Shown: positions 3,884-32,954, counted from the stretch's first letter. The stretch is DNA of 47,561 bases from an uncultured Desulfobacteraceae bacterium (GCA_964409085.1 CAYPCE010000008.1:1-47561); one strand, 5' to 3'. Made by a program: numbers and translations. Notes: generated from the sequence alone by a model not told the origin.

Positions 3884-3912
3884 TTGACAATTGGCATTGG
3901 ATAACCTACAAA
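3884..3912 (+). promoter_or_regulatory. Candidate sigma70 promoter (TTGACA-17-TACAAA) for the O-methyltransferase gene
   Basis: TTGACA at 3884-3889, a 17-nt spacer, then TACAAA at 3907-3912. The -10 element overlaps the ORF-track ATG at 3914, which argues for the downstream TTG start at 3974. Confidence 0.35.
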
Positions 3913-3973
3913 TTTGCCTTACGTTAAACTGTATAAACGGTGGACTTCCCATGCCGAACGGAAGGAGAAAGCA

Positions 3974-4972
3974 TTGACGGAACAAAAATGGCATCCCGGC
4001 ACGCTCCTGGAAACCTCCGGATATTACTGGCGCACCTGCACGCTCCATGCGGGGGTCAAGCTGGACGTGTTTACGAAGATCGGAAACGAGACGCTGACGG
4101 CGGAAGAAGCGGCTGAAAAGATCGGCGGAGAGGTCCGGGCCACGGCCATGCTGTTAGACGCCCTGGCGGCCATGGAATTGTTGAAAAAGGAGGGCGGCCG
4201 GTACGCCAGCACCGAGGCGTCCGCCGCCTATCTCTCAAAGGATTCGCCCAAATATATCGGCTACATGATCCAGCATCACCACCACCTCCTTCCCTCCTGG
4301 GGACAGCTTCACGAAGCGGTCAAAACCGGCAGGCCGGTGCGGGGGCGGGCCTCCTTCAGCGACCCGGAGGTCCGGGAGAGCTTTCTCATGGGCATGTTCA
4401 ACAACGCCATGCTCCAGGCGCCCATGGTGGCGGATGTGGTGGAGCTGCCGGATCGCGGTCACCTCCTCGATATGGGCGGCGGGCCCGGCACCTACGCCAT
4501 CCATTTTTGCCTTAAATACAAGAGTCTTACGGCCACCGTCTACGATCTGCCCACCACCCGGCCCTTTGCCGAGAAAACCATTGCGCAGTTCGACCTGTCG
4601 GACCGGATCACGTTTAAAGAAGGGGATTTCACCGAAGACGCGGACCTGGGCGGCCCATACGACGCGGCGTGGCTCTCCCATATCCTCCACGGAGAGGACC
4701 CGGAAGAGTGCCGCAGAATCGTCAAAAAGGCGGCGGCCGCCCTCACCCCCGGCGGGCGGTTGCTGATCCATGAGTTCATCCTGGACAATACACGGGACAC
4801 CCCCCTCTTCCCGGCCCTCTTCTCCCTCAACATGCTCCTGGGCACCGACGGGGGGCAGGCCTATTCCGAGGCGGAACTCACCGACATGATGGCCGGGGCC
4901 GGGCTCCGGGACATCAGGCGCCTCCCCTTCAGGGGACCCACGGATTCCGCCATCCTCGAAGGGCGCCGGTAG
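3974..4972 (+). CDS. Class I SAM-dependent O-methyltransferase (Methyltransf_2 family with dimerisation domain)
   Basis: Motif I (LLDMGGGPGTYAI), an acidic post-I residue (VYDLP) and a HEFILDN region. TTG at 3974 sits 6 nt after an AAGGAGAAAG Shine-Dalgarno (SD) sequence. The ORF track extends in frame to ATG 3914, but the promoter geometry favours 3974. Confidence 0.75.
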   Translation: MTEQKWHPGTLLETSGYYWRTCTLHAGVKLDVFTKIGNETLTAEEAAEKIGGEVRATAMLLDALAAMELLKKEGGRYASTEASAAYLSKDSPKYIGYMIQHHHHLLPSWGQLHEAVKTGRPVRGRASFSDPEVRESFLMGMFNNAMLQAPMVADVVELPDRGHLLDMGGGPGTYAIHFCLKYKSLTATVYDLPTTRPFAEKTIAQFDLSDRITFKEGDFTEDADLGGPYDAAWLSHILHGEDPEECRRIVKKAAAALTPGGRLLIHEFILDNTRDTPLFPALFSLNMLLGTDGGQAYSEAELTDMMAGAGLRDIRRLPFRGPTDSAILEGRR

Positions 4973-7905: not shown

Positions 7906-8670
7906 ATGGACTTCCAATGCATCATCTATGAAAAATCGGAGGGGATCGCCGTCATCAAGCTCAACCGACCCCAAGTGCTCAATGCCATGAACAAGCCGCT
8001 CTGGATCGATTTCCAGGCCGCCCTGGCCGACGCCCGGGCCGATGAGACGGTCAAAGCGCTGATCATCACCGGCGAGGGCCGGGCTTTTTCCACCGGCGCC
8101 GACCTGAAAGAATCCCGGACCCGGTCCGCAGAGGACTACCGGGACTACCTGGAAGCGCTCCAGGAGGCCTCCAAAAAGATCATCCGGTTCGACAAACCCA
8201 CCATCGCCGCCATCAACGGGTACGCCTTGGGCTCGGGCTATGAATTGGCCCTGGCCTGCGACATTCGCATTGCGGCGGAAGATGCCCAGATCGGCTCCCC
8301 CGAGGCCCGGGTCACCTCATCGGTCACCGGCGGCGCCATGCGGCTGATCCAGGACCTCGTGGGACCGGGCAAGGCCAAGGAACTCCTTTTCACCGCCGAG
8401 AACATCGACGGCAGGGAAGCCGAACGCATCGGTCTCGTGAACAAGGCCGTGCCGCCCGAGGCCCTCATGGCGACGGCCCGGGACATGGCCGCCAAAATCG
8501 CCGCCAACGCCGCGTTTTCCATCAAGATGATCAAAAAAGGCCTCCACATGGCCCACGAGGTGAGCCTCGACGCCCTCATGGACTTTGAAGTGGAAGCCTG
8601 CCTGGCCTGCGTTTCCACCAAAGAACGCCAGGCCTCCCTCCAGACCTTCGAAGACCGAAAGAAACAATAA
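7906..8670 (+). CDS. Enoyl-CoA hydratase/isomerase (crotonase family)
   Basis: Crotonase signature (ITGEGRAFSTGADL; IAAINGYALGSGYELALACDIR). An internal start at ATG 7906 is chosen; the 5' extension from 7612 is Arg/Pro-rich with no homology signal. Confidence 0.85.
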   Translation: MDFQCIIYEKSEGIAVIKLNRPQVLNAMNKPLWIDFQAALADARADETVKALIITGEGRAFSTGADLKESRTRSAEDYRDYLEALQEASKKIIRFDKPTIAAINGYALGSGYELALACDIRIAAEDAQIGSPEARVTSSVTGGAMRLIQDLVGPGKAKELLFTAENIDGREAERIGLVNKAVPPEALMATARDMAAKIAANAAFSIKMIKKGLHMAHEVSLDALMDFEVEACLACVSTKERQASLQTFEDRKKQ

Positions 8671-8675
8671 ACCTT

Positions 8676-8707
8676 TGTCCCTCTGTCCCTCTGTCCCTCT
8701 GTCCCTC
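8676..8707. repeat. Perfect tandem repeat (TGTCCCTC)x4
   Basis: Four exact head-to-tail 8-bp units in the 61-bp spacer between the enoyl-CoA hydratase stop and the acetyl-CoA synthetase start. Confidence 0.9.
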
Positions 8708-8731
8708 ACTTAACACAGGAGACCCAACCCC

Positions 8732-10930
8732 ATGTCCCTCCATAAAATCTTAAACGCCGAATCGGTGGCCATCGTCGGCGCGTCCAAAACCGAAACCAAG
8801 CGGGGCTACCAGGCCATCCGGACCCTGCTTGATGAACAGTACGAAGGCGAGATTTATCCCGTAAACCCCAAGGAAAAGAGCGTTCTGGGGTTCAAATGCT
8901 ACAGCCAGGTGTCGGACATCGTCGGGCCGGTGGACATGGCCCTGATCACCACCCCGGCCAGGACCATTCCAGCGGTCCTCAAGGACTGCGGCAAAAAAGG
9001 CGTGGCCGGTGCAGTCATCATCGCCGGCGGCTTCGGGGAATCGGGCACGGAAGGGCTCGGTCTGGAAAACGAGGTGGTTGCCGCCGCCCGTGAAAACGGC
9101 ATCCGCCTCATCGGCCCCAACACTTCCGGCATGATGAATTTAAAAGACCACCTCAATCTGGTGGGCCTCCGGGAGGCGCCCGAAGGGGAAATCGCCCTCC
9201 TCTCCCAAAGCGGCAACATGGCACTGACCCTCATTACCGAAGCCAAGCTCAAAAGCCAGAAGGGGTTTTCCTACTATGTGGGGGTGGGCAACGAGGCCGA
9301 TATCCGGTTCCACGAGTACCTGGAATTCTTTCGGAAAGACAAGAACACCAAAGCCATCCTCATGTACGTGGAGGGGATGCGCGAAGGCCGGAAATTTCTC
9401 CAGCAGGCCTACAAGACCACCCTTCAGAAACCGGTCGTCCTGCTCAAGAGCGGCCGGTCCGCCACGGGTGCCAAGTCGGCCGGGTCCCACACCGGGGCCC
9501 TGGCCGGCATCTCCGAGGTGGCCCGTACCGCCTTCGAACGGGCCGGCATCATGGTGATTGATCGCTCCGACCAGCTCTTTCCCGCGGCCGAGACCCTCTC
9601 CAGCCTGCCGCCCATCAAAAACAACCATGTGGCCATCCTGGCCGACGGCGGGGGACATGCCACCATCGCGGCGGACCTGCTGACGGACCTGGGCGTCGTC
9701 ATTCCGCCGCTGGGAGAAAAGACCCAGGCCCAACTCCGGAAAATCCTGCCGGCCTCAGCATCGGTCCGAAACCCCGTGGACGTGGCCGGGGGCACCGACG
9801 CCGACCCGACCATTTTTGCCGACTGCGCCGAAATCCTTCTCAAGGACCCGCAAATCGGCGGAATGCTGCTGGTGGGACTGTTCGGCGGCTACGGGATCCG
9901 GTTCGCCGAGAGCCTGGCGCTCAAAGAAGAGGATGCGGCCCACCGCATGGGCAAAAAGGTCCGGACCCGGAAAAAACCCATCGTGGTCCACAGCCTCTAT
10001 TCCTCGAAACATCCCCACCCGCTCCATCTGCTCCGCTACTACAACATCCCGGTCTACGACTCCCTGGATGTGGCCTGCAAATCCATCGGCGTGCTGGCGG
10101 AATACGGCCGGTTCCTCGATTCCTACCACGCCAAGGCCAATTTCGTCTTTAACTGGCGGGCCAAGGCCAAACCCGAAGGGGAAAAGATCATCCGGGCGGC
10201 CCGGGAAGCGGGCCGGGACGTGCTCCTGGAACACGAGGCCAAAAAGCTCCTCCAGCTCCACGGTACCCAGAAGTTTAGAGACGTGCTGGCCAAGGACGCC
10301 GACGCCGCGGTGGCGGCGGCCAAGAAAATCGGAAGGCCGGTGGCCCTCAAGATCGTCTCCCCCGACATCCTCCACAAGAGCGACGCCGGCGGGGTCCGCC
10401 TCAATCTCGTGAACGAAGCCGACATCCGGGCCGCCTACGAGGAGATCCTCCAGAACGCCGCCGCCTACAAAGCCGGGGCCGACGTCCGGGGCGTGCTGGT
10501 GTCGCCCATGGCCCAGCGCGGGCTGGAGGTGATCATCGGCACCAAGATCGACGACCAGTTCGGCCCCATCATCATGTTCGGGCTGGGGGGCGTCATGGTG
10601 GAGATCCTCAAGGACGTGGCCTTCCGGGTGCTGCCCATTTCAGAGCGCTCGGCCCGGAAGATGATGGAGGACATCAAGTCGGCGCCCATCCTGGACGGCA
10701 TCCGGGGGGAACCGGGCTACGACAAAAAGGCCCTGAAGGGGACGTTGCTCATGTGCTCGGAACTGATCGAATCCTATCCGGAAATCAAAGAGATGGACCT
10801 GAACCCCATCATCGTCTACGAAAAAGGGATCAACATCGTGGACGCCCGGATCATCCTGAAAAACGGCGACGAACCGCCCATCGTGGAGGCCGAACCCGAA
10901 AAAAAGCGGAAAGGCGGGACAAAGAAATGA
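8732..10930 (+). CDS. Acetate--CoA ligase (ADP-forming), fused alpha/beta type (CoA-binding + SCS-like + ATP-grasp)
   Basis: 732 aa. N-terminal CoA-binding region (VAIVGASKTETKRGYQ...IYPVNPK), a succinyl-CoA-synthetase-like middle region and a C-terminal ATP-grasp region (ALKIVSPDILHKSDAGGV). Confidence 0.85.
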   Translation: MSLHKILNAESVAIVGASKTETKRGYQAIRTLLDEQYEGEIYPVNPKEKSVLGFKCYSQVSDIVGPVDMALITTPARTIPAVLKDCGKKGVAGAVIIAGGFGESGTEGLGLENEVVAAARENGIRLIGPNTSGMMNLKDHLNLVGLREAPEGEIALLSQSGNMALTLITEAKLKSQKGFSYYVGVGNEADIRFHEYLEFFRKDKNTKAILMYVEGMREGRKFLQQAYKTTLQKPVVLLKSGRSATGAKSAGSHTGALAGISEVARTAFERAGIMVIDRSDQLFPAAETLSSLPPIKNNHVAILADGGGHATIAADLLTDLGVVIPPLGEKTQAQLRKILPASASVRNPVDVAGGTDADPTIFADCAEILLKDPQIGGMLLVGLFGGYGIRFAESLALKEEDAAHRMGKKVRTRKKPIVVHSLYSSKHPHPLHLLRYYNIPVYDSLDVACKSIGVLAEYGRFLDSYHAKANFVFNWRAKAKPEGEKIIRAAREAGRDVLLEHEAKKLLQLHGTQKFRDVLAKDADAAVAAAKKIGRPVALKIVSPDILHKSDAGGVRLNLVNEADIRAAYEEILQNAAAYKAGADVRGVLVSPMAQRGLEVIIGTKIDDQFGPIIMFGLGGVMVEILKDVAFRVLPISERSARKMMEDIKSAPILDGIRGEPGYDKKALKGTLLMCSELIESYPEIKEMDLNPIIVYEKGINIVDARIILKNGDEPPIVEAEPEKKRKGGTKK

Positions 10931-16959: not shown

Positions 16960-17107
16960 TCCCCGTTGCGCACCCAAGGCCATGACCTCCCGGAACCAGA
17001 CCGACCGCCCCGCCACCGTTTCCCCCGGGAGCCGGCCCGTCCATCCTCTGGCATCCCGGAGATCCGGAAGACCCCGCGACACCTTCTGGATCTTTACCGT
17101 ACCGCCC

Positions 17108-19333
17108 ATGGTTTCCCTGTCCCTCGCCCTGGCCCTGGTCTTCGGTCTCTTCCTCCTCACCGCCATCTTCGATCCCGGGGGCCATGACTATCTGATCCTG
17201 ACCCTCCTCGCCGTGGCGCCCCTGCTCCTTTTTATCTGGGCGGCGGCCTACTCAATGGAACAGCGCCGGACCGACAAAACCGAAAAGGACCGGAAGCGGG
17301 CCGAGGACGAAATCCGGATTCTGGCAAAATTCCCGGATGAAAACCCCAACCCGATCCTCCGGTTCAACGCCGATGCCATCCTGCTCTATGCCAATGCGGC
17401 GGCGGAATCGTTGCTGACGGTCTGGGAGTGCCGGGTCGGGGACCGGCTGCCGGAACCCTTCAGCCGCCTGTTTTCCGATGATGACGCCGATGTTCACGAC
17501 CGGAGCACCGAAATCGAGGCGGGGGACCGGATCTTCCGCTTCACCGCCAGCACCGCCTCCGATACCGGTTCGGTCTATGTCTACGGCCAGGAAATCACCC
17601 GGCAAAAGGAATACGAGGCCCAACTCCTTCTCTCGGATGGTGTCTTCAACCACACCATCGAGGGCATCGCCATCACCAATGCGGACGGCACCATCGAACG
17701 GGTCAACCCCGCGTTCACCCGCATCACCGGGTACACCGCCGCGGAGGCGGTCGGCGAAAATCCCCGGATCCTCAAATCGGATCGCCACGACGCCGGTTTC
17801 TATCGAGAAATGTGGGAAACGCTCCGGGAAACCGGCCAGTGGCATGGCGAAATCTGGAACCGCCGGAAGAGCGGCGAGGCCTACCCCGAATGGCTCGCCA
17901 TTACGGCCGTCAAGAACCGTCACGGTGAGACGGAAAACTACGTTTCGGTTTTCCATGACATTTCCGAGATCAAGCAAAGCCGGGAAATGCTCCATTTCCA
18001 GGCATACCACGATGCCCTGACATCCCTGCCCAACCGGCATCTGTTCAACGACCGCCTGGAGAGGGCCATCGCCTATGCCAGGCGGAAAAACGGCCGGATC
18101 GCCGTGCTGCTGGTGGATCTGGACAATTTCAAGCACATCAACGATTCCCTGGGCCACCCGGTGGGCGACGAATTCCTGAAGCAAGCGGCGGAGCGGCTGA
18201 AGCGCCACTGCCGGGAGGAGGACACCGTGGCCCGCCTGGGGGGCGACGAGTTCATCATCTTCAATTCGGACCTCACGTCCGACCGGGACGCCGTGGAGGT
18301 GGCCAAGCGGATCCAGCGGACCTTCAACGATCCCATCGTCGCCGACGGCCACGAGCTGTTTTCCACCACCAGCATCGGCATCACCCTCTTTCCCGAGGAC
18401 GGCAAGGACGCCCACACCCTGGTGAAAAACGCCGACATGGCCATGTACCGGGCCAAGTTCCAGGGGAAAAATTCCCACGCCCTCTTCACCCCCGCCCTCC
18501 ATGCGGCCGCCGCCGAACGGATGGAGCTGGAGAGCAGCCTCCGCAAAGCCATCCGGAATGAGGAGTTCACCCTTTTTTACCAGCCCAAAGTCGATCTGGG
18601 GGCGGACCGGATCGTCGGCATCGAGGCCCTGGTCCGGTGGTTCCGGCCGGACGGCGGCATGGCGCCGCCGGATCAGTTCATCCCCCTGGCCGAGGAAACC
18701 GGACTGATCCATCCGCTGGGGGAATGGGTCCTCGAAACCGCCTGCCGCCAAAACCGCATCTGGAACGATACCGTCCATCCCGATCTGACGGTGGCCGTCA
18801 ACCTTTCCGCCCGCCAGTTCGGAGACAGGGATCTCATCCCCCTGGTCCGGAACATCCTGGACCGGACCGGCCTCGATCCGGCCCATCTGGATCTGGAAAT
18901 CACCGAGAACATGGTGATGCATCACCTGACCGAAGCGGTCGGGGCCATGGAGCGTCTCAAGGCCATGGGCATCCACATCTCCATGGATGACTTCGGCACC
19001 GGTTATTCATCCCTGAGTTATTTAAAACGATTTCCCCTCACCCTTCTGAAAATCGACAAATCGTTTATCGGCGATCTGCCCCATAATACCGAAGACGCGG
19101 CCATCGTTCGGGCGATCCTCTCCATGGCCCATAATCTGGGGTTGCGGGTGGTGGCCGAAGGCGTTGAAACGGTCCCGCAACTCGATTTTCTGCATCGCTT
19201 TGGCTGTGAAGAGATCCAGGGATACCTGTTCAGCAAGCCCCTGCCGGCCCGTGAGATGACCCGACTCCTGGGCCAGAAAGGCGCCACCGCGGGGCTCACG
19301 GACGCCGGAAGACGGGATGGGGCGCCGCTTTGA
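17108..19333 (+). CDS. Membrane-anchored PAS-GGDEF-EAL protein (bifunctional diguanylate cyclase/phosphodiesterase)
   Basis: Two N-terminal TM helices, PAS regions, GGDEF (VARLGGDEFII) and EAL (EALVRW...DDFGTGYSSLSYL). An internal start at ATG 17108 is chosen because the track's 42-codon extension is Arg/Pro-rich. Confidence 0.85.
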   Translation: MVSLSLALALVFGLFLLTAIFDPGGHDYLILTLLAVAPLLLFIWAAAYSMEQRRTDKTEKDRKRAEDEIRILAKFPDENPNPILRFNADAILLYANAAAESLLTVWECRVGDRLPEPFSRLFSDDDADVHDRSTEIEAGDRIFRFTASTASDTGSVYVYGQEITRQKEYEAQLLLSDGVFNHTIEGIAITNADGTIERVNPAFTRITGYTAAEAVGENPRILKSDRHDAGFYREMWETLRETGQWHGEIWNRRKSGEAYPEWLAITAVKNRHGETENYVSVFHDISEIKQSREMLHFQAYHDALTSLPNRHLFNDRLERAIAYARRKNGRIAVLLVDLDNFKHINDSLGHPVGDEFLKQAAERLKRHCREEDTVARLGGDEFIIFNSDLTSDRDAVEVAKRIQRTFNDPIVADGHELFSTTSIGITLFPEDGKDAHTLVKNADMAMYRAKFQGKNSHALFTPALHAAAAERMELESSLRKAIRNEEFTLFYQPKVDLGADRIVGIEALVRWFRPDGGMAPPDQFIPLAEETGLIHPLGEWVLETACRQNRIWNDTVHPDLTVAVNLSARQFGDRDLIPLVRNILDRTGLDPAHLDLEITENMVMHHLTEAVGAMERLKAMGIHISMDDFGTGYSSLSYLKRFPLTLLKIDKSFIGDLPHNTEDAAIVRAILSMAHNLGLRVVAEGVETVPQLDFLHRFGCEEIQGYLFSKPLPAREMTRLLGQKGATAGLTDAGRRDGAPL

Positions 19334-19641: not shown

Positions 19642-20385
19642 ATGTTCGATTTTATCTACGAAACCCTCTCCAGTCTCGGTTACACCCATCCCCTCCATCC
19701 CCTCTTCACCCACGTAACCATCGGCCTCACCGTCGGCGCATTCGTCTTCGCTTTGGGCGGCAAAGTCTCCAGGGGAGACGGCATGCTGATGTGCGCCCGG
19801 TACTGTGTATCCTTGGCCCTCGTCGTCCTGATCCCCACCGTGCTGCTGGGGTACATGGACTGGCAACACTTTTTCGGCGGGGCCTGGCGCCTGCCCTTCA
19901 AGGCCAAGCTCGGCCTGGCGGGGGCCCTGCTGATCCTTTTGATCGTCACCGGGCTTCTGGCCGAAAAGGCGCAGCGGCGCAAGACCTCGCCGCTGTTCGC
20001 GTATTTTCTCTGCTTTCTCTGCGTGGCCGGGCTGGGGTATTTCGGCGGCGAACTGGTCTACGGAAAACCATTCGCCGCCAGCGAGCCCGCCTCCCCCGAG
20101 CCCCAGGCCGAAGAAACCACGGCCCCGCCCCAACTGGCTCTGGAGGGTGCCGAAATCTTTTCTCAGAACTGCGCCATGTGCCATGCGGTGGACACCACCG
20201 AGGAGGGAATCGGCCCGGGGCTCAAAGGCCTCTTCAACCGGGATTCCCTGCCGGTCAGCGGCCGTGCCGTGTCGGAAGAAGCGGTTCGGACCCAAGTGCG
20301 CGATCCCTTCGAGAATATGCCGCCGTTTCAGAACTTGACCGATCCGCAAATCGACGCCATCATCGCTTACCTGAAAACGGTCTAA
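19642..20385 (+). CDS. Membrane protein with a C-terminal monoheme c-type cytochrome domain
   Basis: Four or five predicted TM helices at the N-terminus. CxxCH haem-binding motif (CAMCH) and a Met ligand region (FENMPPF). Start 6 nt after stop 20385. Confidence 0.7.
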   Translation: MFDFIYETLSSLGYTHPLHPLFTHVTIGLTVGAFVFALGGKVSRGDGMLMCARYCVSLALVVLIPTVLLGYMDWQHFFGGAWRLPFKAKLGLAGALLILLIVTGLLAEKAQRRKTSPLFAYFLCFLCVAGLGYFGGELVYGKPFAASEPASPEPQAEETTAPPQLALEGAEIFSQNCAMCHAVDTTEEGIGPGLKGLFNRDSLPVSGRAVSEEAVRTQVRDPFENMPPFQNLTDPQIDAIIAYLKTV

Positions 20386-20387: not shown

Positions 20388-20756
20388 ATGATCCCCCCCC
20401 ATGCGCCCCTGGAAAGAAGACGCCATCCCCGAATTCAGCGGCACCTGCCGCTGAAGATCCAGCAGGACCGGACCTTTGACGTCACCGAAACCATCAACCT
20501 GAGTCGCAGTGGGGTCTACTGCCGCCTCCACCGCTCCCTCCCGGAGATGACCCGGCTGCGGATCGTCCTCTCCCTGCCCGCCGGGGACGGCGGGACCCCA
20601 CCGGAGTATGTTTCCTGCGACGGGGTGGTGGTCCGATCGGAAACTCATGGCCCCGGGGACCACCGCATCGCCATCTTCTTTGAAACCATTCCGGAAGCCG
20701 ACAAGGAGAAGCTGTCCCGTTTCATCGACCGCCGCCGGACCGAAGCAGCCGGATAG
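20388..20756 (+). CDS. PilZ-domain protein (c-di-GMP receptor)
   Basis: RxxxR motif ([10 protein letters not shown]) and D/NxSxxG motif ([14 protein letters not shown]). The start follows the cytochrome stop after 2 nt, indicating translational coupling. Confidence 0.75.
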
Positions 20757-20887
20757 AGGGTTTTTCCTTCCCAAAACCGCGGCGCTCTGGTAAACATCGA
20801 TCCCTGAATGGACGGGAGGCATCCCGGGACCGCCTCAACCGGATCGCCACCCGGTGTGGAACCGCGGTCTGCCGGGAGAAAGGAACG

Positions 20888-22153
20888 ATGCCGATGACAA
20901 TGATAGACCGCATCGACTGGTTTATCCCCGAGGCTGTGAAGGGGCAATTGGATCAACGCCGCCGGGCCCGTCAACTCGTTATTTTCGCCTTTATCTCGCC
21001 GTTGTTTTTCATCCCCAACATCCTCAAATGGGCCGCCATGGGCCACAATGGGCTGAGCATCAGCACCACGGCCGCGGCCATCGTGTCCCTGGCCATCCCG
21101 CCCATCATGCGATGGAGCGGTCGCCTGGCCCTGGCCGGAAACATCGCCTTTGCCGGCCTGGCGTGGCATTTCCTTTACCTTCCTTATTGGACCGGCGGCA
21201 TCTATTCCAGCGCCCTCGGCTGGAACATGGTGGTACCGGTGCTGGCGGCCACGTTCGTGGGCATCCGCAGCGCCCTTTTCTGGTCCGTCTTCATGGTGGT
21301 CGAGGTGCTGGGGTTCTATCTCTACCAGGCCGCCGGGCATGGGCTGCCGGCCATCGCCTTTGCGGAGGACGAAATCCTGAAGGTCCACCTCGCCAACAAC
21401 CTCGGCCCCCTTCTGGCTTTGGCCGTGACCATGTATTTTTCCGAAAAGGGCATTCAAACCGCCTTCGGCTTCCAGCGGACCACCCTGGCCGACCAGGAGA
21501 CGGCGCTGACATCCCACCGGCAGTCCAGGGAAAAACTGGCCGGGATGGCCCGGCGGCTCCGCCGCATGGTACGGAAGATTCGGGAGATCACCGGCGAACT
21601 GACGGAGATCATTCTTCCGGAAATGGCCGATCTGACCCATGGCAACGATCGGGCCGCCAGCCAGGCGGACACCCGGGTGCAGCGGGCCAATGACCGGATG
21701 AGGCGCGCCCGTGACGTCATGACGTCCCTGTCCGACGCCATGGCGGCCATCGCCACCGCCAGCCAGGAAACCGGCCGGATCATCCAGTCGATCCACGACA
21801 TCGCCTTCCAGACCCGGCTGCTGGCCCTCAACGCGGCGGTGGAAGCGGCCCGGGCCGGCGAGAGCGGGCTGGGGTTCGCCGTGGTGGCCGACGAGGTGGG
21901 CCGCCTGGCCAGATCGGCGGCCGATGCCGCCGACAGCACCGAACATCTCATTCACGAAACGACGGAAGGCATCCGGTCGGCGGTGGATTTGACAGCGGAA
22001 ACCGACACTGCGTTCGGTGAGGCCGCCGCCCGGATGGAAGAAGCCGTGACGCTGATCCAGACCATCGCGGCGGCCTCCACCCGGCAGGCCGGCGGGATTG
22101 AGCGGATCACCGCTGCCATCGCCAAGATGGAACGGACGGTGGCCGCCGAATGA
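20888..22153 (+). CDS. Methyl-accepting chemotaxis protein (multi-TM sensor, no HAMP, short MCP signalling domain)
   Basis: Highly conserved MCP signalling core ([37 protein letters not shown]). About 6 TM helices at the N-terminus. GGAGAAAGGA SD before the ATG. Confidence 0.85.
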
Positions 22154-23841
22154 CCGCCCTTCGACGCCAGGCCCCGGCAGTCGCTCCATCAGGCCGGAGT
22201 TCGGAATGGATCCGGCAGCAGCGGGACCGGTCTGAAGAACTCATTTCTGCGCCGGCCAGTGATTTTACCGCGGTTTACTATGCGGTTTATCATCTGCGGT
22301 CTCTTTTAGACGATTACCCCGAGGCCGCGGGCCGGCGGACGGTCGCGGTTCTCGAAGACCTCCTGAAGCGCGAGGATTTCGCCAGCCAGCGCCAGGGGCT
22401 CTTTCTTTTCCGGCAGGCCGCCCTGACCCTGGTGTCGGTCATGGTTCGGGCCGGGGGCCCTTCGACGGACGACGGCGATCTGGTCTGCGAGGCGCAGAAC
22501 AGCATCGGGCGGGTTTTGGCCGAGACGTGGGGCCACGCGCACCGGGCGATGGCCGAATCTTTGGGGTCGCTGCCCGTGGCGGTGGTTGGGCCGCGGGTTG
22601 AAGGCGGCTGGTTCCATGATAAACAAGATCGATGCCTTGATCTGGGTCGCCTTCTGGACTGGCACGGACTAACACGGATCGGCACGGACCGTACGTTTGG
22701 CCGGAGCCGGGTATTCCGTCTGACCGGCGATGACCGGATTCTGGTTCTCAAAGCGACCCGGCCCGGCGAAAACCCGCGGGGTCTGATAGACGAAGTGCTT
22801 TGGATGTGTCGTTTGGCGGAAATGGCGGGAAGCTTTCCGGGGCGGTTCGACATTCCCGTTCCGCTGGGTCTGGATGGCCATTATCTTTTCCGAATGACCG
22901 GCGTTGACGTTCCGGGCGGCGCTCCGGATTCTGTGAAAGGTCATGCCATCGCGTTTCTCGCCCACCCCGATTATTTCGCCTATCCGGTCGGGCCTGGAAA
23001 CAGCGGCCTTGACGGGGCCGCGTTTACAGAACTGATGGTGCGAAATGCATGGTTGATGGGAAAGTTGATGGCCGAGGGCGTCGTCCATACGGCGCCGATC
23101 CCGCTGTTCCACAACCGGGTTCAAACGGACCGACGCCGGGACGGCGGCCATTATGAATGGTTCCGGGCCGGGCGCCTCGACCGGTGGCTCGCCTCCTGCG
23201 ACTATCCCAATCTAGGCGTAACGGGCCTCCGGGATTTCGAGCATTTCGTTGCCCTGTCCGACCGGAATGCGAACCTCTACCGACATATCGGAACCCATTT
23301 CCTGAGCCTGCTGCTGATCATGGGCGCCTACTTCCGCGGCAAGGCCCCGGACCGGAGGGGGCTCGACCCGGAGGGCCACCCCGTGGATGTCCGGGACCTG
23401 TTCGATCCGGATCTTCTAGCAGAGCTTATCGAAGGCGTCTTCAGGGCATATTATGAAGGATTTACAGGGACGCCGTTTACCGGCCCTTTGCCGCTGGACA
23501 TTCCCGGACTGGTGCTGGCGATGATCGAGGAGATGGGCGTGGACCGGCACATGGAAGAGGTGCTGCGGGTGGCGGACCAGGAAGGGATGACCGATGTCGA
23601 CTATCGGGTGTTCCTTGAGGAGCGGGGGTTTTCAGGCGCCCGGATAAAGAGGCTGCCCAGAGGCGCCGCCGATATCATTTTTCACAGCGGGCCCCATTTG
23701 GGCGGGTTCAATCGGCCCATTTCGCTGCCGGAGATGATCCGGGCCGTGGAAACTTTTTCGGCCCTCTGCATGGCGGGGCGCTATCGACAGTGCCGCGCCG
23801 CCGGACATGTGCATCCTGAAGAATGGGACCCCGGCGTATGA
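22150..23841 (+). CDS. Conserved hypothetical protein (563 aa), no recognisable domain; possible atypical kinase-like fold
   Basis: ATGA overlaps with the MCP stop (22150-22153) and with the next start (23838-23841). A weak kinase-like pattern is present ([18 protein letters not shown], then [13 protein letters not shown], then [13 protein letters not shown]). Confidence 0.6.
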
Positions 23842-24419
23842 CCGGCTGGCTCTTAGCGTTTTTCGTGTTCGCCGGCGGGCTTTTCTCTTTAAAGATGGCC
23901 TATGTCCTCTGCACCGCCCTGGCGCTGCCCGCCACTCAAGGGGCGCTGTACGTCTCTACGTCCCGGCCGCGGATCGCCGCCGCCCTGGACGCCGTGCCGT
24001 TGCGGCCCGGCGACCTGCTGGTGGACCTGGGATGCGGCGACGGCCGCGTGCTCCGGCTGGCCCGGCGGCGGTGTCCAATCCGGGGGATCGGATATGAACT
24101 CAACCCCCTGGCCTATGCCAAGGCCCGGCTGCTTTGCTTCGGATCGCCGGGGATCGAGGTCCGGATGCGCAATTTCTGGTCCGCCGATCTGTCCGGGGCC
24201 CGGGTGGTGTTCTGCTATCTTTTCCCCGACGTCATGGCCCGCATGGCCCGGAAGCTGACGGCGGAACTCCGTCCCGGCGCCATGGTGGTCTCCTGCAATT
24301 TCCCCCTGCCGGGGTGTCGGCCGGAACGGGTGCTGCGGCCCGGCGGGTCTCTTCACAATGATCCCATTTATATCTACAGCGCCGACGCGATGCGCGATGA
24401 ACCGAAAGCGACGACATGA
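23838..24419 (+). CDS. Small membrane-anchored class I SAM-dependent methyltransferase
   Basis: N-terminal TM helix (WLLAFFVFAGGLFSL), motif I (LVDLGCGDGRVL), post-I (GIGYELNP) and motif II (ARVVFCYLFPD). ATGA coupling on both sides. Confidence 0.7.
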   Translation: MTGWLLAFFVFAGGLFSLKMAYVLCTALALPATQGALYVSTSRPRIAAALDAVPLRPGDLLVDLGCGDGRVLRLARRRCPIRGIGYELNPLAYAKARLLCFGSPGIEVRMRNFWSADLSGARVVFCYLFPDVMARMARKLTAELRPGAMVVSCNFPLPGCRPERVLRPGGSLHNDPIYIYSADAMRDEPKATT

Positions 24420-24871
24420 AGATGGACGATCTGCTGAAGCTGCTGGGGGAGACCTACGAAAACAAACTTCCCTTCAACCGGGTATTGGGCCTGCGGATCG
24501 GCGCCCTTTCGGAGACGGCGGTCACCGTCCACTTCGACATGCGGCCCGATCTGGTGGGCAATTTCGTCCACGGCATCCTCCATGGCGGGGTCATTTCCGC
24601 GGCCCTGGACGCGACGGGCGGCATGGTGGCCACGGCCGGGATCCTACGCCAGGCGGCGGCCGAGGGGACTGAAGCCGCCGTTGCCCGCATCGCCCGCGTC
24701 GGCACCATCGACCTTCGCGTCGATTACCTCCGCCCCGGCAGGGGCGAACGGTTCACCGTAACCGGCAACCCCATGCGGACCGGCCGTAAAGTGGCCGTGG
24801 TCCGGACCGAACTCAAAAACGAATCGGATGTGCTGATCGCCGTGGGGACGGGGACGTATATCGTGGGGTGA
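24416..24871 (+). CDS. PaaI-family hot-dog-fold thioesterase
   Basis: Hot-dog thioesterase signature (NFVHGILHGGVISAALDATGG), 151 aa. The start is coupled to the upstream stop as ATGA. Confidence 0.8.
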   Translation: MKMDDLLKLLGETYENKLPFNRVLGLRIGALSETAVTVHFDMRPDLVGNFVHGILHGGVISAALDATGGMVATAGILRQAAAEGTEAAVARIARVGTIDLRVDYLRPGRGERFTVTGNPMRTGRKVAVVRTELKNESDVLIAVGTGTYIVG

Positions 24872-24906
24872 GAAGGGCCGCCCGTTTTTGCGAAAAAAAG
24901 AGACGA

Positions 24907-26898
24907 TCAGCCCGGTCGCGTCATTCCGGAGATCGCGTCCGGGAAGGACGCCATCCATTTTTCCATGCCGTCCGTGTCCATCGCATCGGCGCAGAGATGG
25001 AGGTTTTCGCCGTAGGTCCCCAGGGCCGGGTGGCCGTATCGGTCGGCGATGGCTTTTAACTCTTCGGCGAAGTCGATGATGTCGTCGATGAAATAGATGT
25101 CTTTGATGTCTTCCCACTTGTCGCGCATGGCGGCGAGTTCATCCATCATTTCAGGCGAACAGGGGGGAGGGGCGGCCTCCGGATGCGGGGCCGGCGTTTC
25201 GCGGGACGCCCCTTGCCGGGGTAGAAACGGCGCCAATTCACGGAACAGGCGACGTTTGGTGATGGGCTTCCGCAAATAGCCGTCGAAAATTTGTTTCCGT
25301 TCGTCTTCCGCGCCTTTCAGCCCGGATGCGGTCATGGCGATGACGGGAATCCGGCTGAGATCGTCGTCTTTTTTCATCCGGACGGCGATTTCCACGCCGT
25401 CGGCGCCGGGCATGATCAAGTCCATCAGCACCACGTCGGGGCGATCCGTCGGCAGGCGTCGGAAAGCATCCTCGCCGTCTTCGGATTCGATCACCGTCAG
25501 CGCGGTCTCATCGAGATAGGCGGCCACCAGCCGACGGTTGTCGGCGATGTCGTCCACCACCAGGACGGTGGCCGGGTCGAACTGGAGGGTTTCAGAACGG
25601 TCGGCTTCATCGGGGTCGTCGACGCATCCCTCCGCGACGACCTGGAGGTTCGGAAACGATACCGAAAACACGCTCCCTTTCCCCTTTTCGCTTTCCACTC
25701 CGATGGTCCCGCCCATCATCTGGACGAGCTTCCGGGTGATGGCGAGTCCCAGTCCGGTGCCGCCGTAATGGCCGACTTTCTGCCCTTTCTGCTGGCGGAA
25801 CGGGGCGAAAATGGATTCCTGTTGGTCGCGGGGGATGCCGATGCCCGTGTCCTCGACGGTGAGCGCCAACCGGAACCGGTCTTCCGTCCCATCCTCGAAC
25901 CGTCCGGCGGCGGCGAACCGGACGCGCCCCTTGTCGGTGAATTTCACGGCGTTGCCCACCAGGTTGATGAGGACCTGCCGGAGGCGGACTTCATCGAGGG
26001 CGAGAAACCGGGGGACCTCCGGGCCCGTCTCGGCCGTCAATTCGAGCCCTTGCCCGGTTGCGTCCTTTTCGAAGAGCCGTCGGGTCTCGCCGATGATTTC
26101 CTCGATTTTCACCGGCCCATATTCGAGGTCCAGCGCGCCGGACTCGATTTTCGAAAGGTCGAGGATATCGTTGATGATGGCCAGCAGGGTCCGGCCGGCG
26201 GAGATGATGGCGTTCAAATGGGCTTTCTGGCGCGGTTCCTGGATGAGCGGGATCAGGATTTCGCTGAAACCGAGAATGGCGTTCATGGGGGTCCGGATCT
26301 CATGGCTCATGTTGGCCAGGAATTCGCTTTTGGCCCGGTTGGCGATTTCCGCCGCCTCCTTGGCGTCGGCGAGTTCGGCGGTCCGTTCGCGCACCCGGAG
26401 TTCAAGGGTTTCGTTGGCCCGGCGCAGCGCCTCCCGGGCGGCTTTTTCCTTCTCCAGGGCGGCGATCAGGAGCCGCTGTTTTTCGTTCAGCTCCTTGCAT
26501 TGGGTGTAGGCCCGGAGCGCCTCGGTGATGGTGAGCTGAAAATCGGCTTCGTCCCAGGGTTTGGAAATGTACCGGTAGAGATCGGCCTGGTTGACCGCGT
26601 TGCCCACCGCCTCGGCGTCGGCCTGGCCGGTGAGAAAGATTTTGAGCGCCTGGGGGTATCGGCTGTGGATCGTGCTCAACAGCTCGTCGCCCTTCATGCC
26701 CGGCATGATCTGGTCGGAAATGATCACAGGCACTTCGACCCCATCGGCCAGGAGGTCTTCCATGACCTCCAGGGCCTCTTCGCCGCTTTCGGCCAGTTCG
26801 ATGGCGTAAGCGTCCCCCACGTAGCGCCGCAGTTGGTCCGTGAGACTGGTCAGAACGACGCTTTCATCGTCCACGCACAGGATGGCCGGTTTTTTCAT
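24907..26898 (-). CDS. Hybrid histidine kinase (REC-coiled coil-HisKA-HATPase_c-REC-C-terminal helical domain)
   Basis: N-terminal receiver ([11 protein letters not shown]...[13 protein letters not shown]), H-box ([12 protein letters not shown]), ATPase motifs and a second receiver ([13 protein letters not shown]...[13 protein letters not shown]). It is the last gene of a coupled five-gene cluster. Confidence 0.85.
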
Positions 26899-27247
26899 GT
26901 TTTTTCCAGTCCGGAGACGAGGGTTTCAATAAGATCTTTCTCGCTCCAGGGTTTGTAGAGACAGCGATGAAGATTGGCGCGTCGTCGCGTCCTGTCGACG
27001 GCCGTCTCGTCGGCCTGCCCGGTGAGCAGGACGGTGACGATGTTCGGAAACCGCTCGTGAACCTTCGTGAGGAACTCGTCGCCTTTCATGCCCGGCATCA
27101 ACCAGTCCGAGACGATGATCAGTACCTCCATGCCGTCCTCGTGGAGTTCCTCGACCACCTCCATGGCCTCGTCGGCGCTATCGGCGAATTCGTACTGGTA
27201 GCTGTCCTTGAAATGGTTCCGGAGCTGATCCCTGAGGCTCGTCAGTA

Positions 27248-28743
<1,496 letters not shown>

Positions 28744-28747
<4 letters not shown>

Positions 28748-31677
28748 TGAGCGTCTCCAGCGGAGCGGATCAGCTCCATAATCGTCGCATATTCAAAATC
28801 GTCCACCAGGCGGCCGAGGGCGTCGGCGAGTCTTGGATCATGGGCCCGGACGGCGTCGAGGGCCCCGGCGATGCGGTCCATGTTGACCCGGGCCACGGCG
28901 TCCGACAGATCCTGGCGGAGGTCGGGGGGCAGGGCCGCCATGGCTTCCGGCGTAGGGGCGGCGGCGTCGGGTTCCGGCCCGTCCGGGGTCGTTTCCTCGT
29001 CCAGCAGATACCGGAGCCCCAGGTGCTTTTCCATGGCGTCGAAGATTTCCGACTCGCGGAACGGCTTCCGCACGAAATCGTCGCAACCGGCCGACAGGAC
29101 GACGGCCCGCTGTTCGTCGAAGGCGCTGGCCGTCAGGGCGATGACGGCCGTGGCCTGCCCCTTGGCCGTGGCCTTGATCCGCTTCGTGGCCTCGTACCCG
29201 TCCATGACCGGCATCCGCATGTCCATCCAGATGAGGTGGGGATCCCAGGATTCCCAGATCTCCAACGCCTCCGCGCCGTTTTCCGCTGTTTTGACGGCAA
29301 AGCCGATGGGGGACAGCAGCTTTTCCATCAAATGGCGGTTGGTCATCCGGTCGTCGACCACCAGGATCCGGCATTCGGCCTGATCCGGCGCCAGTCCGAC
29401 CACCCGGCGGGCGGGGCCGGTCTCCGGCGCATCGGCGGCGTCGGCGACCACCGCCGCGATCGAAAATGAGAAGACCGCGCCCCGGCCCACTTCGCTCCTG
29501 ACCGTCATGTCGCCGCCCATCATCCGGGCGAATTTCCGGCTGATGGCCAGTCCGAGCCCCGTCCCTTGCTGGGATTTCCGGCCGGTTTCCGTCTGGACAA
29601 AGGCGTCGAAAAGGGTTTCGGTTTCCTCGGCGGTGATGCCGGGCCCCGTGTCCTCGATTTCAAAGAGCAGGACGACGCGTTCGTCCGGCGCCGGCGGCGC
29701 GTCCACCGGCGGTTGAACGCCGACCCGCACCGCGACGCCGCCTTCCTCCGTGAATTTGAGCGCGTTGCTCAGCAGGTTGACGAGGATCTGGCGGAGCCGG
29801 CCCTCGTCGGTCCGGACGAACCGGGGCGCGTCGTCGGCCGTCTCCACCAGAAACCGCAGCCCCTTCTCCTTCGACCGCATTCGGAACATCTCCTGGATGT
29901 CGGCCATGAGGCGCGGCAGCTCGAAGTTCGTTTCGTGGAGGGTGATACGGCCGGCTTCGATCTTGGACAGGTCGAGCACGTCGTTGATGAGCATCAGCAG
30001 ATGCTCGCCGCTTCGCAGGATGACGTCGATGGTCTCCCGGTGCTCGGCGGGGAGATCGGTCCGCTTGGCCAGCAACTGGGAAAAGCCCATGATGGCGTTC
30101 AGCGGCGTGCGCAGTTCATGGCTCATGTTGGCCAGAAAGACGCTTTTGGCCTGGTTGGCGATTTCAGCGGCCCGTTTGGCGTCGGTCAGCTCGGCGGTCC
30201 GTTCCTCGACTTTTCGCTTGAGGGTTTCCGCATGGCCTTCCAGCTCCGCGTTGGCGGCCTGGAGGGCCTCTTCCGCCGCTTTCCGGACCGACACCTCCTC
30301 CCGGAGCTGGTCCGTGCGGCGCTGGATTTTGCCGGCGGCCTCCCGCAGATTCCGGATCATGCCGTCGATGGCGTTGCCCAGGGCGTCGTGGGCCGAACGG
30401 GGTTGGACGTCGATCGTCAGGTCGCCCTGGGAGACGCTCGTCGCGGCGTCGGCCATCTCCATGAGATACCGGGTCATCCGCCCGTAGGCCTCCCGGGTCT
30501 CCAGGAGCCTTTCGACGATCTCGTTGAAGGCGGCGGCGGTCTGGCCCACCTCGTCCTGGAGGTCCACCGACAGCGGGACGGCCGTCACCGTAAAATCGGA
30601 CCGGATGTCTCCCTCGGACAGGCGCGACATCCGGCGGCTCAGGGTCTTCAGGTCCGTGTGGGCCACATCCTGGGATGCGCGCATGACCCGTTGCAGGGGC
30701 CGGGTCATCTTCCGGGACAGCAACAGGCCGATGACAAGGCCCATCGTGATGGCGACCAGGGTGGCCCCCAGCAGCTCGATCCGCGTGTCGTCGGCCAGCT
30801 TCCGGGAAAACCGGTTGTACCGGCCGTAGGCCGCTTCGATGTCGGCCGCGATGGCCGCCGCCGCGCGGCTGATGTCGGATTCGATGACGTCGAGTTCCTC
30901 GGCGAACAGTTTCTGGAGGCGCTTGTAATCGTTCCGCACCGTCCCAAATTCCTTGAAATACGTGTCCACGGCCGCGGCGGCCGCGGCGGCGTTGTCTTTC
31001 ATGGACGGTTCTTCGAGGGCCTTGGCCAGAAAGCCGAGAAACCGCTTGACGACCCAGTATCCTTTGCTGAAAGAGGCCATATGGCGCGGGTCGCCCTCTT
31101 CGAGAAAGCGGGTCGCGTTGAGCCGCATCATGTGGAACCCGTCCCGGGCGTTGCCGTAGGCCAGGAAGACATCCGACGCATTCTGGGAGTTGACGCCCAC
31201 CCGGATGGCCGACAGCTTCTGTTCGATGAGCAGTTCCTGTTCGTTGAGGATGGTGGAAAGCAGCCGCTGCCGCCGCCCGATAAGACCGGTGATTTCCGAG
31301 AACGTCTCCTCGTAGTCGGCGACCGAGGACGCGATGCGGCGGACTTTTTCCTCCCAGGCGGGGTCGTCCGCCCGGCTTTCGGCCCTGGACAACAGGTCTT
31401 CAAGGGCGTCGATTTGGGTGTTGAACGCGTCGATGTCGGACTGAAGGTGGGACCGGACGTACCGGTAGGCGTGAAACCGGGCCGACAGCACGCCGGTGAT
31501 GATTTCCTGGGCGATCTGGCGGCTGACGGCAAGGCGATTCGTCAGTTCATCCATCGTCCGGCCCAGCCGGTCGAGCCGGCTTAACGCCAAAATGCAGACG
31601 GCGGTCATGATCACCAGGGGGACCATGAACCCCAGGATCAGCCGGGCGCTCAGCCGTCGCCGGAAAAATTGGATCAT
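28744..31677 (-). CDS. Periplasmic-sensor hybrid histidine kinase (TM-sensor-HAMP-HisKA-HATPase_c-REC-C-terminal helical domain)
   Basis: TM segment, then a ~280-aa periplasmic region, a second TM segment and HAMP. H-box ([12 protein letters not shown]), ATPase (DTGPGI; GTGLGLAIS) and a receiver ([13 protein letters not shown]). A start at ATG 31677 (MIQFF...) would overlap the solute-binding protein stop as ATGA. Confidence 0.8.
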
Positions 31678-32954
31678 CGCGTCCGGCCGCAGGTTTGGGC
31701 TGGCGGGTACCATTGGGCCAGGCCCGCCTGAAGGCTGTCCGCCGCCCGCCGGGGCGTCTCTTCCCCGTTGAGGACGGCCAGGGCGGCGCGCTGCATGAGG
31801 GAATAGGCGTCCGGCGACCCGTCGCGGATCGCCTCCCAGGCGAACCGGACGTCGGCGCCGCGGTCGGCGTTGAGGCCCAGAAACGCGTTGGCGTGGGCGT
31901 TATCGAGGCGCGGAACGTCGGTGTGCATGGGAAAAAAGCCCGGCAGCTCGTTGCCCATGAGGGCCGCGAATTCGGGCGTCGTCATCCATTCCAGAAATTG
32001 TCTGGCTTCGGCCTTGTGGGTCGAATGGGCGTTGAGCCCCATGCCCGCGTCCAGGTGAAACGTGATGTAGGCGCCGCTTCCCTTGGGCGGCGGCACGGCG
32101 AAAACCGACCATTGGAAGGGCGGATTCTCGGATTCGAAAAAGGGAATGTCCCACGACCCGCCCATCCACATGGCCGCCTTTCCCTGGACGAACAATTGCA
32201 GGCTGTCGGCGTACATGAAAAACGGATGGTTTTTGGGGAAATAGGGCGCCAGATCCTCTAATGCGGCGAAGGCCGCCGTCATCCGGTCGTCGTTGAAGCA
32301 CCGCTCGCCGGACAGATAGGCCTTGCGGCCCTCGCGGCCGCCGATAAAATTGGGGATCAGGTTCATGAGGACGATTTCATTGATCGTCCAGGGATCCCCG
32401 GAGGCATTGGCGAACGGCGTGACGCCGGCCTTTTTGATGCTTTGCGCGGTTTCCAAAAAGGCGCTCCATGACGCGGGCACGTTCAGGCCCAGGCGCTCGA
32501 ATATATCGATGTTATAGTAAACGCCGTGGGACGTGGCGATGAACGGCACCCCGTAGGGGACGCCGTCTTCCGTCGACCAGGGCTCCCGCATGGCGGGGCG
32601 GAACCGTTCTTTCAGCGACGCCATGTCGTTCAAGGGGGCGACATGACCGGCGTCGAAGAGCCGCCGGCCCACGGAATAGGACCGGAGGTAGAAGAGGTCC
32701 GGCCCGCCGCCGTCTTCCAGTTGGGACCGCAGGGCGGCGTCGTATTCCGACGGCGTGGTGGGGTCGAAGGTGATGTCGATGGCCGGGTGCAGGGCGTGGA
32801 ACCGGTCCAGTATCCGGTTCATGCGGGGGGCGTCTTCCGACCGCCAGGAGCCCATGGTGAGGACGACGGTCTCCCGGGCGGCGGCGACGTCAATGTCGCG
32901 AGCCGCGCAGAAGGTCAGATAAACGGCGAAGATCAAGAATGGAAACCGTTTCAT
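31674..32954 (-). CDS. Periplasmic solute-binding protein (ABC-type family 1, sugar-type) with no cognate permease/ATPase genes
   Basis: Signal peptide ([18 protein letters not shown]). Family-1 solute-binding fold indicators throughout (GGGPDLFYL; WMGGSWD). An internal start at ATG 32954 is chosen; the 53-codon upstream extension is Arg/Pro-rich. Confidence 0.75.

Follow-up and report, generated by a model that had tools for sequence, protein, structure and literature searches.

A coupled gene unit encodes a transducer and a SidJ-related enzyme

We analysed a stretch of DNA of 47,561 nucleotides (nt) from an uncultured Desulfobacteraceae bacterium (GCA_964409085.1 CAYPCE010000008.1:1-47561; the whole stretch is called the window below), focusing on four consecutive plus-strand genes. 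They encode a transducer with the signalling domain of methyl-accepting chemotaxis proteins (MCPs), a 563-amino acid (aa) enzyme related to SidJ of Legionella, a membrane-anchored methyltransferase (MTase) and a hotdog thioesterase (Table 1). An earlier note, made from the sequence alone, had proposed that these genes may form a non-canonical MCP-based signalling or modification module, with a methyltransferase unlike CheR and an uncharacterized large protein in place of the usual chemotaxis partners.

The gene layout given there was correct. All three junctions are ATGA overlaps (at 22150, 23838 and 24416), each with a gap of -4, and the four genes are an operon-like, translationally coupled unit. 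The MTase has an alternative start (ATG at 23823), and the start at 23838 is backed by the N termini of its homologues (MTGWL...). Such overlaps are common in this genome, and an adjacent operon of histidine kinase (HK) and response regulator (RR) genes has two further ones; those of the cluster indicate an operon, and a functional partnership does not follow from them alone. A Pfam scan of all large open reading frames (ORFs) in the window found no CheA, CheW, CheR or CheB domain, in agreement with the earlier statement that no che genes lie nearby.

Table 1 Features of the co-directional gene cluster, with positions counted from the first letter of the window
Feature	Position	Strand	Evidence or remark
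DUF2231-cytochrome c gene	19642-20385	+	Pfam Cytochrom_C E 5.6e-13, DUF2231 E 8.6e-8
Stand-alone PilZ protein, 122 aa (cyclic di-GMP (c-di-GMP) receptor type)	20388-20756	+	Pfam PilZ E 3.6e-9
PilZ-MCP intergenic gap, 131 nt	20757-20887	+	Sole sizeable gap in the cluster
MCP-like transducer, 421 aa	20888-22153	+	PF00015 MCPsignal E 9e-33
SidJ-related kinase-fold enzyme, 563 aa	22150-23841	+	NF033874 597 bits; start overlaps MCP stop (ATGA)
Membrane-anchored class I S-adenosylmethionine (SAM) MTase, aKMT/FAM173 type, 193 aa	23838-24419	+	Start overlaps stop of SidJ-related gene (ATGA)
Hotdog thioesterase, PRK11688 family, 151 aa, last gene of the operon	24416-24871	+	Start overlaps MTase stop (ATGA)

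The 563-aa protein has a SidJ fold and a conserved catalytic apparatus

The 563-aa protein, which had been described as an orphan, turned out to be a full-length member of NCBIfam NF033874 (597.5 bits against a cut-off of 300; residues 38-545 on profile positions 2-506 of 507). This hypothetical equivalog is named 'SidJ-related pseudokinase' without an assigned function, and homologues at NCBI already bear the name. No Pfam family matches the protein, and neither the Pfam scan nor Foldseek revealed a CheW- or CheA-like domain in it. Searched with phmmer against all sequences of the Protein Data Bank (PDB), it matched Legionella SidJ only, weakly (E 1.5e-3) and exactly over the catalytic-loop insertion; H492, R500, Y506, R522, N534 and D542 of SidJ align with H321, R329, Y335, R342, N354 and D362.

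In an AlphaFold2 model of the protein (predicted local distance difference test (pLDDT) 82, predicted template modelling score (pTM) 0.86), an N-terminal helical domain (~18-139) precedes a kinase-like core with a catalytic-loop insertion (321-342). K201 ends beta-strand 194-202 (beta3) and E215 lies in helix 210-224 (alphaC), and by their position in the model, without residue-level superposition, these residues correspond to K367 and E381 of SidJ. Together with the six residues aligned by phmmer, both are invariant in an alignment of 30 homologues. With the model as query, the best 15 Foldseek matches in the PDB were all SidJ (E 1e-10 to 5e-8, query-normalized TM-score (TMq) ~0.5), and ordinary kinases came next at E >1e-2, a gap of more than five orders of magnitude. 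The earlier note had suggested structure comparison for this protein and for the MTase; the 563-aa protein is neither an orphan nor an unknown.

To our knowledge, no kinase-fold protein glutamylase other than SidJ has a known substrate, and SidJ acts inside eukaryotic host cells. SidJ and SdjA of Legionella pneumophila, both calmodulin-dependent, share with the 563-aa protein the fold, the kinase-like site (beta3 lysine, alphaC glutamate and the equivalents of N534 and D542) and the catalytic-loop insertion, which in SidJ forms a 'migrated' nucleotide pocket (H492, R500, Y506) and carries the donor-glutamate arginine R522; the equivalents are all present in the window protein. In SidJ, these residues serve to bind ATP and Mg, to stabilize the substrate-linked glutamyl-adenylate and to hold the donor glutamate in position (10.1101/2021.04.13.439722; PMC6858067). 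The differences are substantial, however. The likeness, seen in sequence and model, amounts to ~14% identity over the structure, the window protein is shorter (563 versus 873 aa) with a different N-terminal domain, and it has no IQ/calmodulin helix. Its gene is chromosomal and belongs to free-living sulfate reducers, whereas SidJ is a secreted effector, and the Pfam scan of large ORFs found no SidE-family substrate in the window.

A C-terminal IQ motif was absent from all 30 SidJ-related sequences, whether sought as IQxxxRGxxxR or as a C-terminal IQxxxR. Published surveys agree: SidJ homologues with conserved catalytic motifs occur in bacteria, archaea and viruses, their substrates and activators not being known (10.1101/2021.04.13.439722; PMC6858067), and those outside Legionella lack the IQ motif, just as SidE is not found outside Legionella (10.1101/2021.04.13.439722). 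In the 563-aa protein, then, the SidJ fold is combined with a catalytic apparatus conserved in full, and the calmodulin motif is missing. That all the catalytic and donor-glutamate residues are invariant speaks against a scaffold without activity. The protein is most likely catalytically active, either as an ATP-dependent protein glutamylase that needs no calmodulin or as a closely related ligase that adenylates carboxylates, and its target would be an endogenous bacterial protein.

The methyltransferase resembles aKMT and the thioesterase is of PRK11688 type

The third gene encodes, as stated earlier, a class I SAM MTase with a transmembrane (TM) anchor and without likeness to CheR. Its single N-terminal TM helix (residues 5-23 by hydropathy, helix 2-33 in the structure model) is kept in 30 homologues and is followed by a YVST pre-motif and motif I (LLVDLGCGDG), and no CheR match was found in Pfam or NCBIfam. 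Against NF041081, the archaeal aKMT equivalog, the protein reached E 2.9e-14 and 53.4 bits, under the cut-off of 200, which makes it a relative and not an equivalog. A profile of its family aligned with the aKMT structure 5fa8 over the catalytic domain from end to end (E 1.2e-26; positions 38-184 on 9-159), and Foldseek gave a target-normalized TM-score (TMt) of 0.86, a root mean square deviation of 1.5-1.9 A, with 1.5 A for aKMT, and 30% identity to aKMT and to 5bxy, the closest bacterial structure, which is labelled an RNA methyltransferase. Many homologues have weak Pfam matches to CMAS, a family of lipid-modifying MTases, but for the window protein lipid MTases (E 1e-6 or weaker) come a long way behind the protein-lysine MTase aKMT (E 1e-26).

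Sequence and structure model together predict a protein-lysine methyltransferase fold of aKMT/FAM173 type with a membrane anchor. The catalytic domain is like that of Sulfolobus aKMT and of FAM173A/B (ANT-KMT and ATPSc-KMT), and, as in FAM173B, a TM helix at the N terminus leads into the MTase domain. FAM173A/B are mitochondrial TM-anchored lysine MTases that methylate membrane proteins (PMC9006661). The family to which the window MTase belongs has more than 1100 homologues (61-70% identity) across the phylum; in three loci sampled for reverse synteny the neighbours were all unrelated, so the family usually stands alone.

For the thioesterase, the PaaI assignment of the earlier note had to be given up (TIGR02286, 34.5 bits against 118.9). 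The protein clears the cut-off of the PRK11688-type family NF008675 (198 versus 107 bits) and matches 4HBT at E 1e-13, with 3hdu (E 2e-38) and 3e8p, both uncharacterized proteins, as its best relatives in the PDB. A weak terminator-like hairpin with a T-run (24866-24883) follows its gene.

The transducer has a canonical hairpin tip and no methylation consensus

The only Pfam domain of the transducer is MCPsignal (PF00015; residues 265-416, 114 bits against 34.6). Hydrophobic segments fall within residues ~30-190, with five windows above threshold, a pattern compatible with ~6 TM helices, and there is no periplasmic domain. No HAMP match was found in Pfam at E <0.01, and the description as a 6-TM MCP without HAMP was thus upheld; about 40 extra residues in the N-terminal arm could hide a divergent HAMP-type linker. 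The signalling bundle is short, with a canonical hairpin tip (EAARAGE-G-GFAVVA-EV) that is kept in an alignment of orthologues, so that coupling to CheA/CheW encoded elsewhere is the default expectation. The methylation consensus [ASTG][ASTG]xx[EQ][EQ]xx[ASTG][ASTG] had no site in five MCP orthologues, including that of the window, whose sole EE pair (ARMEEAV) is not conserved among them.

The family of this transducer comprises ~70 full-length homologue clusters of ~420-445 aa in Deltaproteobacteria, including Desulfarculus baarsii DSM 2075. A metagenome scan for reverse synteny yielded four loci, one of them full length (L090, without a SidJ-related gene), and to these we added L094-L096. 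The family mostly stands alone: the four sampled members (Desulfarculus baarsii and other contigs; L090 and L094-L096) have no SidJ-related neighbour. MTase genes do lie upstream of the MCP in L094 and L096; they are unrelated to the MTase of the window.

The SidJ-related gene keeps its methyltransferase more often than its transducer

We compared gene order around the SidJ-related gene in close relatives (Table 2). The results bear on the earlier suggestion that synteny be examined, and they divide: the four-gene set recurs in L081, and the MCP, SidJ-related and MTase genes together in L087/L088, but the MCP has been lost in three lineages and 77 of 80 wider loci (below) lack these partners.

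Table 2 Gene order in the window and its relatives (C, cytochrome c; P, PilZ; M, MCP; S, SidJ-related; T, MTase; E, thioesterase; identities are to the SidJ-related protein of the window)
Locus	Identity of S	Gene order
Window, L081	100%, 76%	C-P-M-S-T-E, same overlaps
L001 / L083	75%	C-M-S-T(-E), no PilZ
L002	74%	C-[first 24 MCP residues in frame onto S]-[MTase remnant]-E
L003	65%	C-[7-aa ORF]-S-T-E
L084-L086	65%	C-P-[40-aa ORF]-S-T-E
L087 / L088	51%	C-P-DUF123-M-S-T-SulP, M/S ATGA overlap kept

Among seven lineages that share the arrangement of cytochrome and SidJ-related genes, four have the MCP and six the pair of SidJ-related gene and MTase. The ATGA overlap between MCP and SidJ-related gene is kept in the window, L081, L001/L083 and L087/L088, the last with proteins 48-51% identical to those of the window (68% for the MTase). 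Three sister lineages (L002, L003 and L084-L086) have lost the MCP; their SidJ-related gene is intact and the thioesterase is kept, as is the MTase in L003 and L084-L086. Where the MCP is gone, the catalytic residues of the SidJ-related protein are all kept (P0003 and P0005 in the 30-homologue alignment). L016 and L021 have a SidJ-related gene coupled directly (-4) to SulP and no MTase, and L089 and L097 have neither an MCP nor a recognizable MTase. The link to the MCP is local and dispensable, and not a general rule.

Several of these loci carry traces of rearrangement. In L002 (7938-8040; protein P0003, 576 aa), the first 24 MCP codons (MAMMDRIDGFIPEAVKVRVDQRRRA) run in frame onto about residue 8 of the SidJ-related protein, and the MCP as an entity is gone. 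The junction falls at similar RRRA/RRQA codons, which suggests either a microhomology deletion or an assembly artefact of the metagenome-assembled genome (MAG); most of the MTase is missing from the contig as well. A 40-aa ORF overlaps both the PilZ and the SidJ-related gene in L084 (4488-4610), L085 (4267-4389) and L086 (780-902), and in L003 a 7-aa ORF (7981-8004; MTPLIAQ*) overlaps the ATG of the SidJ-related gene. With these tiny ORFs and their 4-nt overlaps, translational coupling into the SidJ-related gene appears to have been preserved after loss of the MCP. Compared by eye, the 40-aa ORF has no similarity to the MCP termini, and the only clear remnant of an MCP is that in L002. In L087, a DUF123 gene lies between PilZ and MCP (4244-4633), and a SulP/STAS transporter gene, overlapping the MTase gene by 4 nt, takes the place of the thioesterase (8230-10038).

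The SidJ-related family usually stands alone

The SidJ-related family has more than 1190 database matches, almost all from Desulfobacterota, and occurs in 397 GTDB species genomes; at 50% identity it forms 583 clusters, 226 of them at E 1e-30 or better. Plasmid and phage collections gave no match, so we dropped carriage on mobile elements as an explanation, and PADLOC returned nothing meaningful in favour of membership in a defence system. Three MAGs gave two SidJ-related loci each (L004 and L047, L005 and L014, L011 and L073), and some genomes thus have two paralogues.

To survey neighbourhoods, we took 80 genome loci with a SidJ-related gene and flanks of up to 8 kb, searched them by tblastn with all six cluster proteins and then clustered their ORFs. 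The MTase (as a remnant only in L002) and the thioesterase were found in just the three closest relatives (65-75% identity), and the MCP in L001 alone. In the other 77 loci (43-49% identity), the 8-kb flanks contained neither an MCP, of whatever kind, nor an MTase or thioesterase of these types. ORF clustering gave no universal neighbour either: the biggest neighbour cluster covers 11 of the 80 loci, and recurring neighbours are heterogeneous housekeeping genes (transketolase, HAD phosphatase, PriA, PilT, ABC transporter components, aminotransferase and others).

SidJ-related domains also occur in giant or multidomain proteins: P0493 (2502 aa), P0497 (1890 aa), P0504 (2425 aa), P0507 (1637 aa), P0447 (633 aa), and P0433 and P0486 (~840 aa). 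Fusion partners include Peptidase_M23 in P0493, HEAT and TPR repeats with a class I MTase domain in P0497, and N-terminal HEAT repeats in P0447. The HEAT, ARM and TPR repeats fused to SidJ-related domains in members of the family suggest protein substrates. We also considered P0497 as a Rosetta-stone link between a SidJ-related enzyme and an MTase; its MTase domain is not of aKMT type, which leaves a weak hint at best.

Upstream genes and surroundings

As the earlier note had it, a membrane cytochrome c gene and a PilZ gene precede the coupled unit. The co-directional cluster opens with the cytochrome gene, whose product has four hydrophobic segments and joins a membrane DUF2231 domain (4 TM) to a cytochrome domain of c type. 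The gene lies upstream in all close relatives (L001-L003, L081 and L083-L088). The PilZ gene begins 2 nt past the cytochrome stop and varies among relatives, being present in L081 and L084-L088 and absent from L001, L083, L002 and L003. Between PilZ and MCP, the 131-nt gap contains no Rfam family and no convincing sigma-70-like promoter, a kind of scan that is ill-suited to this phylum.

Input of c-di-GMP to chemoreceptors is established, and PilZ-bearing chemoreceptors are known (PMC3604760). As in Azospirillum Tlp1 and Azorhizobium Cbp1, PilZ and MCP are encoded together in the window, downstream of a PAS-GGDEF-EAL gene (16982-19333); the PilZ domain of the window is, however, a separate protein, 131 nt upstream, and it is absent from L001/L083, which keep the MCP. 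The separate PilZ and MCP genes may be a split version of c-di-GMP-binding MCP-PilZ receptors. L095 (10478-12610) encodes a chemoreceptor of 710 aa that has 4HB_MCP and MCPsignal domains and ends in a PilZ domain; its gene lies ~3 kb from a member of the 6-TM MCP family.

Signalling genes abound around the cluster. Besides the PAS-GGDEF-EAL gene, there are RR-GGDEF and GAF-HK genes further on, and four two-component genes on the minus strand (24907-31713; hybrid HK-RR, single RR, RR-HK and HAMP-HK-RR) converge on the cluster, with a solute-binding protein gene next to them. In all relatives examined, the DUF2231-cytochrome c gene has a cytochrome P460 gene ahead of it, encoded on the opposite strand (L081:2863-3351, L083:3182-3670, L084:2696-3184, L087:2305-2796). 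The window has no P460 gene there, and just 308 nt separate its GGDEF-EAL gene from the cytochrome gene. Two stretches of the window are low in G+C (0.52-0.56 versus an average of ~0.63), namely 2001-4000 and 46001-47000, the latter adjoining a Uma2-family endonuclease gene (46405-46995).

Interpretation of the operon

The reading we favour, to which we would give an even chance, is that of a lineage-specific operon around a probably active glutamylase whose principal target is encoded elsewhere, with the MCP as a candidate but non-obligatory partner. The operon would consist of the DUF2231-cytochrome c gene, PilZ, the 131-nt gap, the MCP-like transducer, the SidJ-related enzyme, the aKMT/FAM173-type MTase and the PRK11688-type thioesterase, and it would have been assembled in one sublineage from three normally solitary families (the 6-TM MCP, the SidJ-related enzyme and the aKMT-like MTase). 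Its stable core is the SidJ-related gene, nearly always with the MTase; the MCP, the PilZ gene and the gene in last position (thioesterase or SulP) are variable.

Following this logic, the SidJ-related enzyme would adenylate a carboxylate of an endogenous protein, with transfer to free glutamate as the second step. Because the SidJ-related family is normally alone, and because the MCP is dispensable even within the subfamily, the principal target is probably some conserved protein whose gene lies elsewhere. The MCP, for its part, would signal through CheA/CheW from other parts of the genome, and the upstream PilZ and cytochrome genes may contribute. Co-translation with the MCP would then reflect shared regulation or, at the most, a lineage-specific relationship of an accessory kind; an obligatory machine for modifying the MCP would not be involved. 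The accretion of three normally separate, single-copy-like genes gives mild support to such shared regulation or an accessory tie, most strongly for the pair of SidJ-related gene and MTase.

Some observations pull the other way. The order MCP, SidJ-related gene, MTase, with its 4-nt overlap, survives ~50% protein divergence in L087/L088, which is more than random juxtaposition usually does, and a neighbour-joining tree sets the operon-bearing copies apart as a separate subfamily, together with P0058, a copy that lacks an upstream MCP. Within that subfamily, the functional tie may therefore be real. As for the chemistry, the model is at its least confident (pLDDT <50) in the insertion loop with the key residues (321-340), no biochemical activity is reported for any family member outside Legionella, and a full-text literature search found no paper characterizing one.

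An alternative that we hold to be unlikely is that the SidJ-related glutamylase and the aKMT/FAM173-like MTase act as a two-enzyme pair on one membrane or membrane-proximal protein, either the MCP where it is present or the DUF2231-cytochrome c, with the thioesterase or SulP as accessories. Both are predicted protein-modifying enzymes, and their genes, single-copy-like orthologues of two normally separate families brought together, adjoin each other (by a 4-nt overlap or a gap of 1 nt) in all lineages of the subfamily but L002. It would fit that FAM173A/B, to which the MTase is related, are eukaryotic enzymes with a TM anchor and act on membrane proteins (PMC9006661), and P0497 provides a fusion of a SidJ-related domain with a class I MTase, albeit one of another type. 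The pairing is confined to the subfamily, however: none of the sampled loci outside it (77 for the SidJ-related gene, three for the MTase) has the two families side by side, most of the MTase is gone from L002, and in L016 and L021 the SidJ-related gene adjoins SulP without an MTase.

We consider it quite improbable that the genes form a dedicated MCP module, in which the SidJ-related enzyme would adenylate or glutamylate MCP glutamates in the adaptation region or at the hairpin tip and the MTase would add a second mark (lysine methylation), replacing adaptation of the CheR/CheB type or switching the receptor off. SidJ chemistry acts on the gamma-carboxyl of a protein glutamate, the atom that CheR also methylates, and the window indeed places a receptor with an MCP domain next to an MTase and an enzyme whose relatives modify protein glutamates, as in canonical adaptation. 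The coupling of MCP and SidJ-related gene through ATGA where both are present, MCP orthologues devoid of the canonical methylation consensus and a window free of CheR and CheB would fit as well. Yet the MTase is not CheR-like, CheA and CheW are lacking from the window along with CheB, and the linkage is limited to one subfamily. The MCP is gone in three of seven lineages in which the enzyme is intact, in 77 of 80 SidJ-related loci no MCP lies within 8 kb, and the four sampled members of the MCP family have no SidJ-related neighbour. The SidJ-related protein, moreover, has no CheW- or CheA-like domain, and the hairpin tip of the MCP is canonical for binding CheA/CheW. Of the module proposed in the earlier note, what stands is a real coupled operon with two predicted protein-modifying enzymes; a dispensable MCP and families that are usually separate speak against the rest. 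If it were true, a dedicated MCP module would mean covalent control of a receptor by glutamylation of carboxyls that CheR normally methylates, and it would provide the first endogenous substrate of a bacterial SidJ-family glutamylase.

Very unlikely, finally, is a small-molecule or lipid pathway, in which the kinase-fold protein would adenylate a non-protein carboxylate at the membrane and the MTase and acyl-thioesterase would serve the same pathway, or else a non-catalytic scaffold: a hotdog thioesterase of acyl-CoA/ACP type as the last gene in most close relatives, the weak CMAS matches of many MTase homologues and a literature that names no substrate for any non-Legionella member (10.1101/2021.04.13.439722; PMC6858067) would suit such readings, but the MTase is much nearer to aKMT (E 1e-26, TMt 0.86) than to lipid MTases, SulP takes the place of the thioesterase in L087/L088, the HEAT and TPR fusions point to protein partners, and the invariant SidJ catalytic and donor-glutamate residues argue against a scaffold.

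As far as could be found, the setting of a SidJ-related gene in an operon with an MCP-like receptor, an aKMT/FAM173-like membrane MTase and a hotdog thioesterase has not been described, and it is confined to a small subfamily of NF033874. In this one subfamily, a SidJ-related enzyme without the calmodulin switch shares its operon with a receptor in the membrane and with an enzyme, anchored there too, that resembles lysine methyltransferases. The value of the operon lies in tractable candidate partners and not in evidence of a new chemotaxis mechanism: for a bacterial enzyme of the SidJ family, the cytoplasmic domain of the MCP, the MTase and the DUF2231-cytochrome c are candidates for a first endogenous substrate.

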